Below are positions 14,376-23,952 of a stretch of 64,000 nt of DNA, in pieces (the first letter of the stretch is position 1; every line of letters starts with the position of its first letter). Location of the stretch: the sequence record OR844650; one strand, 5' to 3'. This stretch comes from Escherichia phage ECO103 4-12-1. Position numbers and translations under genes: made by a program. The notes under the pieces were generated by a model. It was given only the letters and a program-made list of their open reading frames with translations, did no database searches and was not told the origin of the DNA.

Positions 14376-14460
14376 TAGATACACTCCTGCACCCAGTGGG
14401 CTAGTTTTTGTCTATGCGTATATAATAGCAAAGGGACTGACCGGAGTCAATCCCTTTTTT
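14376..14460 (+). repeat. intergenic repeat element X (copy 1) with intrinsic-terminator-like hairpin
   Basis: 'agatacac..gcaccc..tgggct..ataatagcaaagggactgaccggagtcaatccc' + T7 run; 4 copies in window. Confidence 0.5.
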
Positions 14461-14472
14461 TATTCTTTTTTG

Positions 14473-14673
14473 TTAGATGATTCTCCAATCTTCTACGATC
14501 ATGGTAAGATAACGGACCATCGATTCAAGTGATTCGAATTCCCGATAGTCTGCCGCTCCACCAGCGGTACAAGTACAGCCGATTAAACCATTTTGTAATT
14601 CCTTAATCTGTACATCGATAAGGTTGGCTTTAGCTTCTTTCAGTACTTCAACCAGGGCGATAGCGATAGACAT
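14473..14673 (-). CDS. hypothetical protein
   Basis: ORF track; promoter cassette upstream. Confidence 0.55.
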   Translation of the reverse strand: MSIAIALVEVLKEAKANLIDVQIKELQNGLIGCTCTAGGAADYREFESLESMVRYLTMIVEDWRII

Positions 14674-14728
14674 AATGTTTTACTCCAAACTATTGACGGG
14701 AGAACTATTCCCCCGCTCTATGTAAAAC

Positions 14729-14756
14729 ATTATACATTACTTGTTAGTACTGTCAA
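14729..14756 (-). promoter_or_regulatory. early-type promoter (TTGACA-16-TATAAT) + 5' hairpin
   Basis: minus-strand read; hairpin GGGAGAACTATTCCCCC downstream. Confidence 0.55.
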
Positions 14757-14762
14757 ATAGTT

Positions 14763-15020
14763 TTATGAAATATCTTCGATGTAGTCGGCCCATTTCATTT
14801 TTTCAGTACTGTCAATGGCTACCGGATTATTTGGATCAAACCATTCACCATTACCGCAGTACATACCAACGGCTACGGTTTTATAGCCATCCTGGGCCGT
14901 ACTCCACGACATTGCACGATAGATATGGCCTTTAACTGGTTGCAGTACTGGTAACGTTTTATGGTCTTCTACGTAGGCCATAGCTTGAGGATTTACCCGA
15001 TATTGTGTGAATTGTTCCAT
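14763..15020 (-). CDS. hypothetical protein
   Basis: ORF track; promoter cassette upstream. Confidence 0.55.
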   Translation of the reverse strand: MEQFTQYRVNPQAMAYVEDHKTLPVLQPVKGHIYRAMSWSTAQDGYKTVAVGMYCGNGEWFDPNNPVAIDSTEKMKWADYIEDIS

Positions 15021-15096
15021 GATGTTTCCCCTTGTAGTTAGTAAAGTTATTACATCAGTACTATCAAGCTATGTCAATAGTACTGAAATAAAACTT

Positions 15097-15321
15097 TTAG
15101 ATTAGATTATTGATGCCGTTGATGGTAGACTCGCTTTCTTCTTTCTCCCATTGGCGGTAGTACTTCCATGCTTCATGATATGTGGCGATTAGTTCATCTT
15201 TTTGATCCTGAGTACATGCCAGTACTGAATCACGGTGAGCGGTGTTATAGATAGAATCGAATGATTTCTTCTCTTCTGCCAGGTTAGCTACTTCCCGCAT
15301 CAGTTCATCAAAGTTAGCCAT
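15097..15321 (-). CDS. hypothetical protein
   Basis: ORF track; promoter cassette upstream. Confidence 0.55.
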   Translation of the reverse strand: MANFDELMREVANLAEEKKSFDSIYNTAHRDSVLACTQDQKDELIATYHEAWKYYRQWEKEESESTINGINNLI

Positions 15322-15388
15322 TTTATTACTCCTTTTAGTGGGGGAGGATATCTCCCCCTATGCAAAACATTATACTTTGTTTTAGTTA

Positions 15389-15652
15389 TTATGCAAGTAC
15401 TTTTTTCATATAAAGATTATATTCTACACCGCCGTAACCTTCTACGATGATATGTTTTGCGTTATCACGTTTGCACATAGTGAAACCGTTGTTGATGTGT
15501 TCTGCATTTTCCAGGGCGACATCACCGATAGCGGCACATACGGCACTAATAACAGTATTCCGCAAAGTACTGGTATCATTAGCGGTCATAGTAGTTTGCA
15601 GTACTACGTTGTCGTATACGTGTGCATTGATAGTGATTTCGATAGTGTTCAT
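15389..15652 (-). CDS. hypothetical protein
   Basis: ORF track; promoter cassette upstream. Confidence 0.55.
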   Translation of the reverse strand: MNTIEITINAHVYDNVVLQTTMTANDTSTLRNTVISAVCAAIGDVALENAEHINNGFTMCKRDNAKHIIVEGYGGVEYNLYMKKVLA

Positions 15653-15738
15653 GGTGTATCTCCTGGACTGGCGGGAGAACTATTCCCCCGCTCTATGTAA
15701 AACATTATACGTTAATCTAACTACAATGCAAGTACTTT

Positions 15739-15930
15739 TTAAATTTTATTTCCGATATAGTCCGGTCTATTCTTTTCGGTCATACGCTTTGCTAATGTTT
15801 GCATATGGCTTATTGCGTTTAATGTGTCTTCCTCCAGGGATGAATCAACATAATCAGGATCATTCTTCACCTTGCAATGATTATGATAGCGTAGTACTGC
15901 CAGTACTTTTTTAACTTCTTCTACTGTCAT
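15739..15930 (-). CDS. hypothetical protein
   Basis: ORF track; ATGA overlap with upstream gene. Confidence 0.5.
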   Translation of the reverse strand: MTVEEVKKVLAVLRYHNHCKVKNDPDYVDSSLEEDTLNAISHMQTLAKRMTEKNRPDYIGNKI

Positions 15931-16199
15931 AATAAGTACCCCACTTCGTTAGCTTTCAGGTTAGTATCAATCATCAGTGGATTTTTGTAGTTCACAAAAC
16001 GATTAGTTTTCTCGATAGCGAATCCCATATAATCCAGCTTACTAACAGTACATTCATTCTTAAAAACTTCTTTCGCTGCATCGATGGCTGATTGCATGGA
16101 TAACCGACCATCTAAATTAATGTTTCCAAATGATCCACCAGCAGAAGTAGGATTACCGTTCATATCTTTAATGATCATAGTAGCGGAGTAGCTGGACAT
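15927..16199 (-). CDS. hypothetical protein
   Basis: ORF track; promoter cassette upstream. Confidence 0.55.
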   Translation of the reverse strand: MSSYSATMIIKDMNGNPTSAGGSFGNINLDGRLSMQSAIDAAKEVFKNECTVSKLDYMGFAIEKTNRFVNYKNPLMIDTNLKANEVGYLL

Positions 16200-16286
16200 A
16201 ATTTTGTTTCCTTTTAGTATCGGGGAGAACTATTCTCCCCTTGATGTAAACTATTATACAGTACTGATATACTTTGTCAAATACTT

Positions 16287-21918: not shown

Positions 21919-21985
21919 TGGTAAACGTCCTGTAACGCATTCTAACGAGATAAACGGTTGAGTACTGACATTGTATAGGGTAATG

Positions 21986-22017
21986 AATTAAAGCCCACCA
22001 GCGTTAACCAGTGGGCT
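21986..22017 (-). terminator. terminator-like hairpin (AGCCCACCAG..CCAGTGGGCT)
   Basis: inverted repeat directly after stop of 22024-22167. Confidence 0.4.
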
Positions 22018-22023
22018 ATAATC

Positions 22024-22167
22024 TTACATCTTGCGGATAATCTTAACAGTATCTTTCACCGATTTACCGTCTTGCTGGCATTGCTCGATCATTGCGTATT
22101 GTTCTGCGGTCAGATCCTCGCCAGTTTTTGCCAGTACTGCGTCGATGAATGAATCCAGTGCGATCAT
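22024..22167 (-). CDS. hypothetical small protein (47 aa)
   Basis: own translation MIALDSFIDAVLAKTGEDL...; TTGACA-16-TATAAT promoter upstream; not in ORF track. Confidence 0.5.
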   Translation of the reverse strand: MIALDSFIDAVLAKTGEDLTAEQYAMIEQCQQDGKSVKDTVKIIRKM

Positions 22168-22266
22168 TTTATTTCTCTCTTAGGTTAAGTTAACTACTGT
22201 TGATAAAACTTATTATACAGTACTATCAAACGTTGTCAATATCTTTAATAGTACTGGTAATATATT

Positions 22267-22446
22267 TTAGCGGTAATCGTCGTATGCTTTATTCACCTGG
22301 CGAATGTAACTTTCAAAGGCTTCGTCTACCGTTTCATACTCCCGAACATAATCACCATAGGAAACTACATACATACCTTTTTGATCTTCAAACGTCATGA
22401 TGATAGAATCCAGACCAACGATTTCAGTTTTTGCGATGATAGCCAT
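22267..22446 (-). CDS. hypothetical small protein (59 aa)
   Basis: own translation MAIIAKTEIVGLDSIIMTFEDQ...; TTGACA-17-CATAAT promoter and AAGGAAT RBS; not in ORF track. Confidence 0.5.
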   Translation of the reverse strand: MAIIAKTEIVGLDSIIMTFEDQKGMYVVSYGDYVREYETVDEAFESYIRQVNKAYDDYR

Positions 22447-22529
22447 TTTTTAATTCCTTAGTAGTGTAGTTGATAAAAGTTATTATGTCAGTACTATCAA
22501 ACTATGTCAATAGTACTGTGATAATATTT

Positions 22530-22742
22530 TTAGTTAATGATAGTCAGTGTAAAATTGTAATCACCGCAGCGATATAGCACGTTATTCCCAAATGTTCCAA
22601 CTAATCGCACATCACACAAAACGCCGGTTTTTTCTTTTACTTCCTTGATACTTGTAACTCCTGTAATATCTTTATTAAAGTATTCATGATCTGAAAATAA
22701 AACTTGTTTTGCATTTTTTAATTTCGACCGGATATTAGCCAT
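22530..22742 (-). CDS. hypothetical protein
   Basis: ORF track; promoter cassette upstream. Confidence 0.55.
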   Translation of the reverse strand: MANIRSKLKNAKQVLFSDHEYFNKDITGVTSIKEVKEKTGVLCDVRLVGTFGNNVLYRCGDYNFTLTIIN

Positions 22743-22838
22743 TTTGTTTTCTCTCTCTGTTAGTGGGGAGAACTATTCTCCCCTTGATGTAAACTATTAT
22801 ACAGTACTATAATCTATTGTCAAACTATTTTTTTTATA

Positions 22839-23180
22839 TTATTCGAAATCTTCTGGACCGGACTGATAATCATCTTCACCGTATGCACTTTCTAACCGCT
22901 CGCCAGTGTGATCATCAGTTAGTGAGTCATCCTCATAGTTCACGTTCACGCCCGTGATGTAAAACTGGCTATCGTCTGGATCATTGAAATTAATTTTTTG
23001 GATGTTTACAATAACTGTATTGATACCCAGGACACCGCCATCAGCCGTTACAAAGTACTGATATTTTTCGCAACCGCCTGAATTGAAACCGTAATTAATT
23101 TCGGCCCGACCATCATTTAAACGCAGTGCCTGGGCGATGATTTCATTTTCAAAGTTAGATTGAGCAATTGAGATAGTCAT
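22839..23180 (-). CDS. hypothetical acidic protein
   Basis: ORF track; promoter cassette upstream. Confidence 0.55.
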   Translation of the reverse strand: MTISIAQSNFENEIIAQALRLNDGRAEINYGFNSGGCEKYQYFVTADGGVLGINTVIVNIQKINFNDPDDSQFYITGVNVNYEDDSLTDDHTGERLESAYGEDDYQSGPEDFE

Positions 23181-23262
23181 GATTTGTTTCCTTATTATCA
23201 GGGGAAACCGTTTCCCCTTTCGATGTAAAACATTATACGCTTATCAGGAAGTAATGCAAGTA

Positions 23263-23730
23263 CTATTTCACGTTAATTTCAAAGTACTGCTCTTTGATGT
23301 TTTCCTGTTGGTAAATCTCGTTTAATGCTTTAAGATCTAAAACCTGTTTACCTGCTGCCTGAATATACTTTTTAAGAGTCGCTAACAGCTTCTCAGGCGT
23401 GTTTGTAGTCTTACGTGTTGGGATCTTATCGTGCCCCATAGCGTAGTACTGCTTACGTGCTATAGTACTGATAACACTGCGGTACGGTTCCATGATCAGC
23501 TTGTCTGTGTATTCGTCGCTATCCCCAAACTTCATACCGTGGATCGCAAAGGTCATCATCATGCGGTCGTTATCGCGGATATTGTGGGGGCAGTCGGCAA
23601 GCTCGCGAGTCAGTGACATAGTGATCCCCACGTCGCCACCCAGCGGTAAAGGTCGGGCGATAAAGAAACCGTTAGGGAATACTTTCAGGAAGTTTTCTTG
23701 AACTGCTGCGACGAATTCGATGCTATTCAT
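23263..23730 (-). CDS. hypothetical protein
   Basis: ORF track; promoter cassette upstream. Confidence 0.6.
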   Translation of the reverse strand: MNSIEFVAAVQENFLKVFPNGFFIARPLPLGGDVGITMSLTRELADCPHNIRDNDRMMMTFAIHGMKFGDSDEYTDKLIMEPYRSVISTIARKQYYAMGHDKIPTRKTTNTPEKLLATLKKYIQAAGKQVLDLKALNEIYQQENIKEQYFEINVK

Positions 23731-23864
23731 AATTCATTTCCTTAATTAGTGGGGGAAGTTGTTTCCCCTCTCGATGTAAAACATTATACGCCAATTGAGA
23801 TAGTTTGCAAGTACTTTCTACAAATACTATTAAAATAGTTTTCAGTACTCAATACTCATATAAT

Positions 23865-23952
23865 AGATACACTTATGCACCCTGTGGGCTAGTGAGCTAT
23901 CTCTCAATGAATATATAATAGCAAAATGGCTGACCGGAGTCAACCACTTTTT
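23865..23952 (+). repeat. intergenic repeat element X (copy 4)
   Basis: same element; slightly diverged hairpin + T-run. Confidence 0.45.

Follow-up and report, generated by a model that had tools for sequence, protein, structure and literature searches.

Repeated intergenic cassettes in the early region of an Escherichia jumbo phage are predicted to combine a terminator, an embedded promoter and a structured leader RNA

The DNA analysed here, referred to below as the window, is a stretch of 64,000 nucleotides from Escherichia phage ECO103 4-12-1 (sequence record OR844650). Between 10 and 33 kb it consists of short, densely packed open reading frames (ORFs) on the minus strand, and between some of these an intergenic element recurs. 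Four full copies are present, at positions 14376-14460, 17124-17212, 20395-20479 and 23865-23952, which is where the initial annotation of the window had placed them (the sequences were checked), and the two partial copies it had reported near 30721 and 32975 were located at 30726 and 32976 by a pattern search with the 5' part of the element. The full copies indeed lie just 3' of a minus-strand gene, as the ORFs in question end at 14473, 17221, 20488 and 23953, at 9-16 nt from the elements. From the analyses described below, each copy appears to be a minus-strand early-transcription cassette, composed of a terminator, a promoter embedded in that terminator and a structured leader, and we assign a probability of roughly 0.75 to this reading. 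The predicted parts of the four copies are listed here, where hp1 is the 5' hairpin of the leader and R1 the covariance model that is introduced below.

14430-14457, minus strand: copy 1, terminator hairpin AAAGGGATTGACTCCGGTCAGTCCCTTT, then UUUGCUAUUAU, after the 66-aa ORF 14473-14673 with its stop codon at 14473-14475 (terminator scan, annotation of phage G17, folding)
14422-14450, minus strand: copy 1, sigma-70-type promoter TTGACT-17-TATTAT with a TG-extended -10 (promoter scan 10/12 plus TG, family consensus)
14367-14416, minus strand: copy 1, leader with a weak hp1 (UAG/CUA), GCCC-ACU-GGGU, GC and then GUAUCU (R1 33.3 bits, E=1.6e-6)
17182-17209, minus strand: copy 2, terminator hairpin 3' of the 213-aa kinase-like ORF 17221-17862 and its stop codon (terminator scan, G17 annotation, folding)
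17174-17202, minus strand: copy 2, promoter TTGACT-17-TATTAT with TG (promoter scan)
17114-17168, minus strand: copy 2, leader with hp1 UGAG-AGAUAA-CUCA, ACCC-AUA-GGGU, GC and then GUAUCU (R1 68.6 bits, E=1.5e-16)
20449-20476, minus strand: copy 3, terminator hairpin 3' of the 49-aa ORF 20488-20637 and its stop codon (terminator scan, G17 annotation, folding)
20441-20469, minus strand: copy 3, promoter TTGACT-17-TATTAT with TG (promoter scan)
20386-20435, minus strand: copy 3, leader with a degenerate hp1 (R1 36.4 bits, E=2.1e-7)
23923-23950, minus strand: copy 4, terminator hairpin AAAGTGGTTGACTCCGGTCAGCCATTTT, the stem of which has compensatory changes, 3' of the 47-aa ORF 23953-24096 and its stop codon (terminator scan, folding)
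23915-23943, minus strand: copy 4, promoter TTGACT-17-TATTAT with TG (promoter scan)
23855-23909, minus strand: copy 4, leader (R1 58.8 bits, E=9.2e-14)

The hairpin core of the element, AAGGGACTGACCGGAGTCAATCCCTTTT, occurs three times in the window when at most one mismatch is allowed, against 0 expected (0 in 100 shuffles), and the hairpin of copy 4 is a diverged version of it with compensatory changes. The 5' part, GATACAC..GCACCC(N3)TGGG, was found seven times with the partial copies included, against 0.01 expected. While the element as such is real, the length of about 85 nt first given for it proved too short: repeat finding and BLAST repeats delimit a module of about 130-195 bp that extends into the next minus-strand promoter. 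The possibility that the repeat arose by gene duplication was considered and rejected. The eight ORFs flanking the four copies belong to eight different PHROG families, to which no function is assigned, and for this reason we regard the repeat as regulatory. One of these ORFs is weakly kinase-like, namely the 213-aa ORF upstream of copy 2, which gives a sub-threshold Pkinase match (E=0.003) and has relatives annotated as Ser/Thr kinase.

On the minus strand, the hairpins of all four copies have the properties of intrinsic terminators that would end the gene upstream. They are located just downstream of same-strand stop codons, their stems comprise 12 pairs of which 5 are G-C (4 in copy 4), and their tails contain T at 5 of 8 positions. 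Moreover, the equivalents of copies 1-3 are annotated in the GenBank record of phage G17 as minus-strand terminators, predicted by ARNold at -13 kcal/mol. This agrees with one proposal of the initial annotation, namely that the element is a terminator or 3'-untranslated-region module of the minus-strand gene. It had also stated that the terminator reads best on the plus strand, and this view could not be maintained. The energies of the minus-strand hairpins in copies 1-4 were -19.5, -19.5, -17.6 and -16.9 kcal/mol, whereas those of the plus-strand hairpins were -13.2, -13.2, -13.2 and -6.4 kcal/mol, which makes the plus-strand stem the weaker one by 4.4-10.5 kcal/mol. Closer examination revealed that the plus-strand stem GGGACTGAC/GTCAATCCC contains one C·A mismatch at the position where the minus-strand stem GGGAUUGAC/GUCAGUCCC has a U·G wobble. 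The stem of copy 4 shows two compensatory pair changes (G-C to U-A and A-U to G-C) plus a further wobble pair that exists on the minus strand only. The same asymmetry was observed in 42 of 42 distinct homologous hairpins, where the gene-sense RNA was invariably the more stable one (mean of -14.6 versus -8.7 kcal/mol) and 75 G·U pairs were counted. The T-run is the sole feature of the hairpin that is better on the plus strand.

An alternative view of the element is that of a bidirectional intrinsic terminator, in which a hairpin with an A-run on one side and a T-run on the other halts RNA polymerase arriving from either direction. As in known bidirectional Rho-independent terminators, the hairpin lies between an A-tract and a T-tract (here A7-8 and, opposite it, a U-rich tail). 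In three copies the plus-strand RNA reaches a folding energy of -13.2 kcal/mol, with 5-8 T behind it, and at antisense units of the same family a single hairpin serves the gene on one strand and the unit on the other (for example, at 28566-28586). However, stems of comparable strength on both strands were not found: the stem of the four copies is asymmetric, with wobbles on the gene strand only, the plus stem is weaker in all 42 family hairpins, and in copy 4 it reaches only -6.4 kcal/mol. The promoter scan detected no good plus-strand promoter facing the four sites. Family promoters lacking a hairpin are preceded by the A-run as well (A fraction of 0.51 versus a background of 0.34). In addition, a bidirectional terminator would leave unexplained the presence of a promoter with its -35 and -10 at a fixed distance, the 55 conserved nucleotides beyond the hairpin and their covariation. 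Some bidirectional terminator activity may exist, but as an account of the whole element we consider it unlikely.

The terminator appears to be superimposed on a minus-strand sigma-70 promoter, from which transcription would be initiated anew. In all four copies both hexamers are present at a spacing of 17 nt, with a score of 10/12 and the TG of an extended -10 (TGcTATTAT). The -35 hexamer TTGACT is itself the 5' arm of the terminator hairpin, so that the two signals overlap. Seen from this side, several features of the plus-strand sequence take on another meaning: the conserved TATATAATAGC corresponds to TG-n-TATTAT in reverse complement, the 'ataatagcaaa' that had been pointed out earlier is the minus-strand -10 region read backwards, and the plus-strand T-run is an A-rich tract upstream of the minus-strand -35. 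The consensus of 79 distinct upstream regions of the family shows the A-rich tract at -45 to -39, TTGAC(T), TG and TATAAT, all at a fixed distance to the RNA motif, with about 5 nt between TATAAT and the conserved CA(U) where the RNA model starts. In 39 promoters the -35 lies within a hairpin that reaches at least -10 kcal/mol, and these are gene-sense in 36 of the 36 cases of known orientation; the 42 family promoters without hairpin are mostly antisense. Since the A-tract is enriched in the hairpin class (A fraction of 0.64) as well as in the no-hairpin class, it belongs to the promoter and is more than a plus-strand terminator tail seen from the other side.

A further option that had been raised for the element is a plus-strand small RNA of about 85 nt, launched from a TATAAT-like box just upstream and ending at the hairpin and its T-run. 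A TATAAT does lie upstream of the element on the plus strand at 17118-17123 (copy 2) and in copy 4, and the plus-strand T-run is good. However, this box lacks a -35, no plus-strand promoter was reported there by the promoter scan, and copies 1 and 3 have only a degenerate form of the box, which falls into a non-conserved part of the family alignment. The box that is conserved is the reversed minus-strand -10, the -35 of which resides in the hairpin. Furthermore, 86 of 86 family members have a sigma-70 promoter on the other side and in the opposite sense, and the terminator stem, like all three helices of the leader, contains G·U pairs that turn into C·A on the plus strand; the structure is thus not conserved in the plus sense. 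We therefore regard a plus-strand small RNA as highly improbable.

The transcript from the minus-strand promoter would open with a leader of about 55 nt. This leader consists of hp1, which is variable in sequence but retains its pairing, and an invariant (A/G)CCC-ANN-GGGUGC, in which CCC-ANN-GGGUGC can form a small triloop hairpin (hp2), followed by 6 variable nucleotides and GYRYCY (usually GUAUCU). MAFFT alone could not register hp1, the loop and linker lengths of which vary, and RNAalifold applied to the MAFFT alignment saw only hp2; therefore, the covariance model R1 was built from a seed of 11 sequences of one geometry. In total, R1 identified 86 units in 11 loci, comprising the window and ten related loci from four phage genera (Escherichia, Klebsiella, Pectobacterium and Cronobacter phages) and metagenomic contigs. 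The covariation alignment derived from these 86 units has 76 distinct rows. Each of the four core pairs of hp1 shows 22-39 double (compensatory) changes among these sequences. Taken together, hp1 and hp2 were 86.5% paired, as compared to 69% in shuffled alignments and at most 43% with the 3' strand slid, and the covariation score was 0.351 versus 0.115 for the shuffles and at most 0.063 for the slid controls. Within hp2 the CCC/GGG is invariant, and the closing pair is G·U in 39 sequences and A-U in 31. Across the real pairs, with one non-pair column left out, there were 51 G·U/U·G as opposed to 8 A·C/C·A, which implies that the functional strand is that of the promoter. The pattern 'agatacac..gcaccc(N3)tgggct', which had been described as a plus-strand element, is the antisense of this RNA motif, whose pairs work only in the minus sense.

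A third helix, hp3, can be formed by GGGUGC and the GYRYCY located 6 nt downstream. It was 90.6% paired, compared to 35-66% in slid controls, in a region of the alignment (that of the 3' strand) that was not fitted to any structure. The variation of this 3' strand is of the pairing-preserving type only, with U or C opposite G and A or G opposite U, and the consensus contains three G·U pairs. As hp2 and hp3 both make use of the same GGG, they are mutually exclusive; hp3 has the lower mean energy (-4.3 versus -2.9 kcal/mol) and is the more stable of the two in 56 of the 76 sequences. Single-sequence folds also showed a long-range helix in which the hp1 loop (AGAUA) pairs with a downstream UAUCU. 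It was dropped in favour of hp3, as it is lost where the 3' segment differs (as in the unit at position 4406 of locus L077). A likeness of TAACCC..AGGG to T3/T7-type promoters was likewise rejected, the CCC-to-GGG spacing being ~5 nt too short.

Conservation of CCCAYAGGGTGC..GTATCT could also be due to a double-stranded DNA operator for a phage or host protein, rather than to an RNA. The position of an invariant 12-mer at about +25 to +40 of strong promoters would be well suited to a roadblock repressor. However, neither the pairing-preserving variation in hp1 and hp3 nor the alternation between G·U and A-U in hp2 would be expected of such a site, and the site is not palindromic. An operator is accordingly quite improbable, although not to the same degree as the plus-strand small RNA.

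It should be noted that several observations weigh against the reading of the copies as cassettes with a structured leader. On the sense strand, the hairpin is followed by no more than a short U-tract (UUU, then GCUAUUAU), so that termination may be partial, and the plus-strand T-run is better. The alignment from which the hp1 and hp2 covariation was counted had been fitted to the model, and many of the aligned sequences are related copies, which inflates the counts. Folded singly, the leaders have unremarkable z-scores (-1.5 to +0.4), and for the leader alone the difference in stability between sense and antisense is modest (48 versus 28, p ~0.01). hp1 is weak in copies 1 and 3, and hp3 has an invariant 5' strand and is thus devoid of true double compensations. 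The 5' and 3' ends of transcripts of these phages are predicted only. Sequence and comparison show the anatomy of the cassette, its strand, the pairing at the RNA level and the restriction to the early, terminal-repeat region; termination and initiation at these sites are inferred, and what the leader does is a guess.

The leader is not limited to the four full copies. The motif CCCANNGGGTGC was found 9 times in the window versus 0.65 expected, 5 times on the minus and 4 times on the plus strand, and every one of these copies is preceded by a same-sense sigma-70 promoter, with 21-28 nt between the -10 hexamer and the motif. Once the units are aligned on the leader, the distance between promoter and leader is fixed. 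The number of units matched by R1 in the window is likewise 9; they occur on both strands, each with a same-sense promoter in front. In addition to the four leaders listed above, the following units were identified.

28457-28590, plus strand: solo unit antisense to the genes, with promoter TTGACA-17-CATAAT (28457-28485), leader (28493-28547), TTCAGTACTGAA and terminator (28566-28586)
30630-30713, plus strand: plus member of a convergent pair, with promoter (30630-30658) and leader (30670-30713)
30715-30802, minus strand: minus member of this pair, with promoter (30802-30774) and leader (30768-30715), corresponding to the partial copy first noted near 30721
32874-32998, plus strand: unit at the upstream edge of the early region, with promoter (32874-32901) and leader (32909-32963)
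32976-32998, minus strand: degenerate minus-sense partner of the preceding unit, corresponding to the partial copy first noted near 32975
33125-33179, plus strand: further leader unit, with a promoter TTGCTT..TATAAT just upstream

The product of the solo unit at 28457-28590 is predicted to be a small RNA of about 100 nt, and its terminator hairpin is common to the unit and to a convergent minus-strand gene. The convergent pair (30669-30775) folds into a long hairpin with z-scores of -4.4 and -3.6. In the four full copies, the leader continues into a second, ordinary early promoter and then into the next gene.

We next consider where such units are found. The best megablast matches to positions 13800-24100, among 110 phage records, were Asteriusvirus jumbo phages of E. 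coli with 93-97% identity (vB_Ec-M-J, fEgEco12, G17, PBECO4-like and 121Q), and the matched region is annotated as a direct terminal repeat in the records of vB_Ec-M-J, CBB and Muenster. By these similarities, the window is identified as the early, terminal-repeat region of an Asteriusvirus-type (PBECO4/G17/121Q-like) jumbo phage, its 10-33 kb region being the early, host-takeover part of the genome. No tRNA or tmRNA was found in the whole window. Records named as 'Campylobacter' (n=6) and 'Pseudomonas' (n=1) phages also match the region at high identity and are probably mislabelled or contaminated. In the complete 352-kb genome of the E. coli phage TH47, R1 detected 10 units, all of them within 16 kb and none elsewhere. 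The same promoter-leader layout is present in CBB (Pectobacterium), RaK2 and K64-1 (Klebsiella) and GAP32 (Cronobacter) as well as in TH47, and also in IMG/VR contigs of 355-360 kb. A BLAST search with one unit returned 66 phage records with hosts from eight enterobacterial genera, the distant ones at 70-80% identity. A scan of IMG/VR with CCCANNGGGTGCGGAG gave mostly single matches attributable to chance, with relevant ones only in contigs of 355-378 kb. A search for CCCANNGGGTGC-N6-GTATCT in 185,579 bacterial and archaeal genomes gave 108 scattered single matches, which is about the number expected by chance, and none was enterobacterial among the matches listed. There is thus no sign of a mimicked host sequence or of bacterial copies. 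As judged from these searches, the leader units appear to be confined to the early, terminal-repeat region of Rak2-like jumbo phages.

Rfam 15 gave no match at gathering score in the whole window, and two units searched at E-values of up to 10 gave only chance-level matches (E of at least 0.25). The CBB genome paper lists RpoD-like promoters with UP-like elements and no leader RNA (PMC5259590). In the literature on Asteriusvirus, RaK2, PBECO4, 121Q and Sharanji, we found neither a transcript map nor a description of the motif. The leader is therefore an RNA motif family that we did not find described in the literature or in Rfam 15.

The orientation of the units relative to the genes bears on the possible function of this RNA. 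Orientation was scored for 68 units in seven loci of known gene orientation, 47 of which were gene-sense and 21 antisense. Sense units start at the terminator of the preceding gene and run into a second, ordinary promoter (within 130 nt in at least 20 of them). In 9 of the 13 solo antisense units, the GC-rich terminator of the preceding gene is reached 11-18 nt after the leader, and the products of these units are predicted to be small RNAs of about 100 nt. Sixteen units are arranged in face-to-face pairs, the transcripts of which would fold into long hairpins. Because about one third of the units have no downstream gene and yet keep the structure, the RNA, or the act of making it, would matter in itself and not only as a leader. 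For the same reason, we tentatively favour the view that the leader is an abundant, stand-alone early non-coding RNA (ncRNA) that binds a conserved partner, although we would put this at somewhat below even odds.

Alternatively, the leader may be a signal acting in cis on the genes behind it. The lambda nut sites with boxA/boxB and the putL/putR sites of phage HK022 are promoter-proximal structured antitermination RNAs of the same layout (a hairpin, then a second element), and the ompA 5'-untranslated region is an example of a 5'-terminal stem-loop that stabilises a message. By analogy, the leader could mediate put/nut-like antitermination or protect against 5'-end-dependent decay. Like nut and put, it would be a two-stem-loop RNA just downstream of strong early promoters, in an early region dense with terminators; like the ompA-type stabiliser, it would directly follow the start site, with hp1 only 0-3 nt from the predicted 5' end. 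Other early promoters also begin with a 5' hairpin, and the gene-sense orientation of 47 of the 68 units is in line with a cis role. However, the 21 units that point away from genes have kept the structure, as have the nine solo units that reach a strong terminator so soon after the leader and the 16 units in face-to-face pairs. Leader and gene are separated by a second promoter in at least 20 sense units. There is no sequence similarity to nut or put, no boxA or boxB and no Rfam match; the likeness lies in position and two-hairpin layout. A stabiliser would need neither an invariant downstream 12-mer nor an alternative helix, and units without a gene would have nothing to stabilise. A purely cis-acting stabiliser or antiterminator is therefore doubtful, and we consider it less likely than a stand-alone ncRNA.

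Non-coding transcription in a terminal repeat has a precedent in PA5oct, a related Pseudomonas jumbo phage, in which two highly transcribed terminal-repeat ncRNAs of 236-451 nt each account for 2-5% of the phage reads (PMC7318152). The units described here resemble them in that they, too, are predicted to be transcribed without coding for protein and lie in a jumbo-phage terminal repeat. Homology between the two was rejected, the best R1 match being 6.9 bits.

Of the systems known to us, the cassettes are most reminiscent of the promoter-early stem-loop (PeSL) cassettes of T4-type phages, which consist of a strong sigma-70-like promoter, an A/T-rich upstream tract and a stem-loop terminator (Arbiol et al. 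2010, PMC2839356) and through which orphan genes are shuffled (PMC2839356; Comeau et al. 2014, PMC4122927). The two have in common that a small intergenic cassette is repeated, with a terminator-like stem-loop and a strong sigma-70-like early promoter preceded by an A/T-rich tract, and that it is found next to orphan early genes in plastic regions. Indel breakpoints lie in the PeSL repeats, and those of a single genome pair (see below) hint at the same here. On the other hand, the -35 lies inside the hairpin in the present cassette, so that the signals overlap, whereas they are side by side in PeSLs. The 3' end of a PeSL includes a Shine-Dalgarno sequence with the start codon of the next gene, in contrast to the 55-nt structured non-coding leader, usually with a second promoter, that is found here. 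Moreover, the present cassette also occurs inverted and in convergent pairs, and the sequences are not homologous. We therefore view the cassette as a variant of the PeSL kind of element and do not file it as a PeSL itself.

This similarity raises the question whether the cassettes are mainly PeSL-like recombination linkers that allow orphan early genes to be swapped, gained or lost. A comparison of the window with the ~92-95% identical TH47 sequence placed indel breakpoints at 14470, which is in a cassette, and at 15743 and 17020, which are in promoter repeats. Window positions 14470-14761 and 15743-17020 are absent from TH47. Conversely, TH47 has an extra promoter-leader unit (24690-24744 of locus L126) in an insertion of about 320 bp (24467-24784 of the same locus) that is absent from the window at about 21720-21732. 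Units and orphan genes are thus gained and lost between genomes that are about 92-95% identical. The flanking genes are unrelated orphans, and the corresponding shuffling by PeSLs is documented in T4-type phages (PMC2839356, PMC4122927). Nonetheless, only this single genome pair was compared, and recombination alone would not select for RNA covariation or for an invariant 12-mer across genera at 70-80% identity. It is conceivable, with a likelihood just short of that of the stand-alone ncRNA, that the cassettes serve mainly as linkers, and a role in shuffling, which we rate similarly, can coexist with an ncRNA or cis role.

Combined, these considerations suggest the following course of events for the minus-strand early-transcription cassette. 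The hairpin of 9-12 bp and UUUGCUAUUAU would end the transcript of the gene just upstream. The same DNA would then be read as a promoter, with the A-run before the hairpin as the A-rich upstream tract, the 5' arm of the hairpin as the -35, and the U-rich tail as the 17-nt spacer and TG-extended -10. Host RNA polymerase could restart about 7 nt further on, at the conserved CA(U), and the new transcript would open with the leader of about 55 nt, folding hp1 and then either hp2 or hp3. Elsewhere in the window, promoter-leader units point the opposite way and would stop after about 100 nt at a terminator, or they face each other. As an abundant early ncRNA, the leader would bind a conserved partner, such as a phage or host protein or RNA polymerase, and the repeated cassettes would supply homology for the shuffling of modules, as PeSLs do.

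A more specific version of this proposal is that the unit is a multi-copy structured ncRNA of Rak2-like phages, whose two-state CCC-ANN-GGGUGC/GYRYCY core diverts a conserved partner during host take-over. A genome would have about 10 copies, or twice as many if they lie in the terminal repeat, and their transcription would start at consensus host promoters on the DNA that enters the cell first. Candidate partners are host RNA polymerase (put-like), an RNase, an RNA chaperone, a defence protein or a phage regulator. In this specific form we consider the idea speculative and on balance unlikely.

A number of other features were noted in the window. A second class of early promoters is represented by about 29 minus-strand copies between 13800 and 33900 (for example, 17041-17093, 20312-20364 and 28853-28905). 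Their layout is TTGCAa-16-TATAATGTTTTACATAG, and between this promoter and the ATG lie a GC-rich hairpin in the 5'-untranslated region (an example is GGGGGAAAUGGUUCUCCC) and a Shine-Dalgarno sequence. Some copies have a 10-bp inverted repeat (CATTGTACTT..AAGTATAATG) that is made up of the spacer and the -10 and is followed by TTTT. The hexamer AGTACT occurs 268 times in the window versus about 22 times expected from base composition, most densely at 12000-40000. It is in excess across the whole TH47 genome too, with a doubled density in the TH47 early region. The hexamer is often found as CAGTACTG just upstream of -10 boxes and as AAGTACTTGCA at -35 boxes. A perfect 12-bp palindrome containing it, TTCAGTACTGAA, has 8 copies (17100, 28547, 30603, 30902, 32706, 33174, 34266 and 41146), of which those at 17100, 28547, 32706, 33174 and 34266 are located a few to about 20 nt 3' of a leader unit. 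AGTACT may be recognised by a regulator of the phage or by a modification enzyme.

At the upstream edge of the early region, about 3 kb (32600-35700) are poor in ORFs and contain several plus-strand consensus promoters, an array of repeats with an 8-bp period (33345-33496) and a 204-nt direct repeat (at 34952 and 35535). This stretch may be a terminus, packaging or origin region. Further on, five ORFs of 380-393 aa follow each other on the plus strand at 39426-45382 and are probably tandem paralogues; GAP32 has an RCC1-like gene on the corresponding side of its early region.

The Rak2-like jumbo phages, including PBECO4, 121Q, G17, RaK2, K64-1, CBB and GAP32, are in development for therapy, and their early programme is almost wholly annotated as 'hypothetical'. 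Our present findings suggest a regulatory grammar for the terminal-repeat early region of these phages, made up of terminators that double as promoters and of a conserved RNA motif outside the described families. The cassette would also be a compact terminator-promoter part for synthetic biology. Even if the RNA is a leader only, the annotation is corrected, as the sites are now labelled as terminators alone and the promoters and the RNA are missed. The cassettes would also explain how orphan early genes are shuffled among these genomes. If the RNA were to be a trans-acting early ncRNA or a signal that modifies RNA polymerase, it would represent a new device for host take-over.

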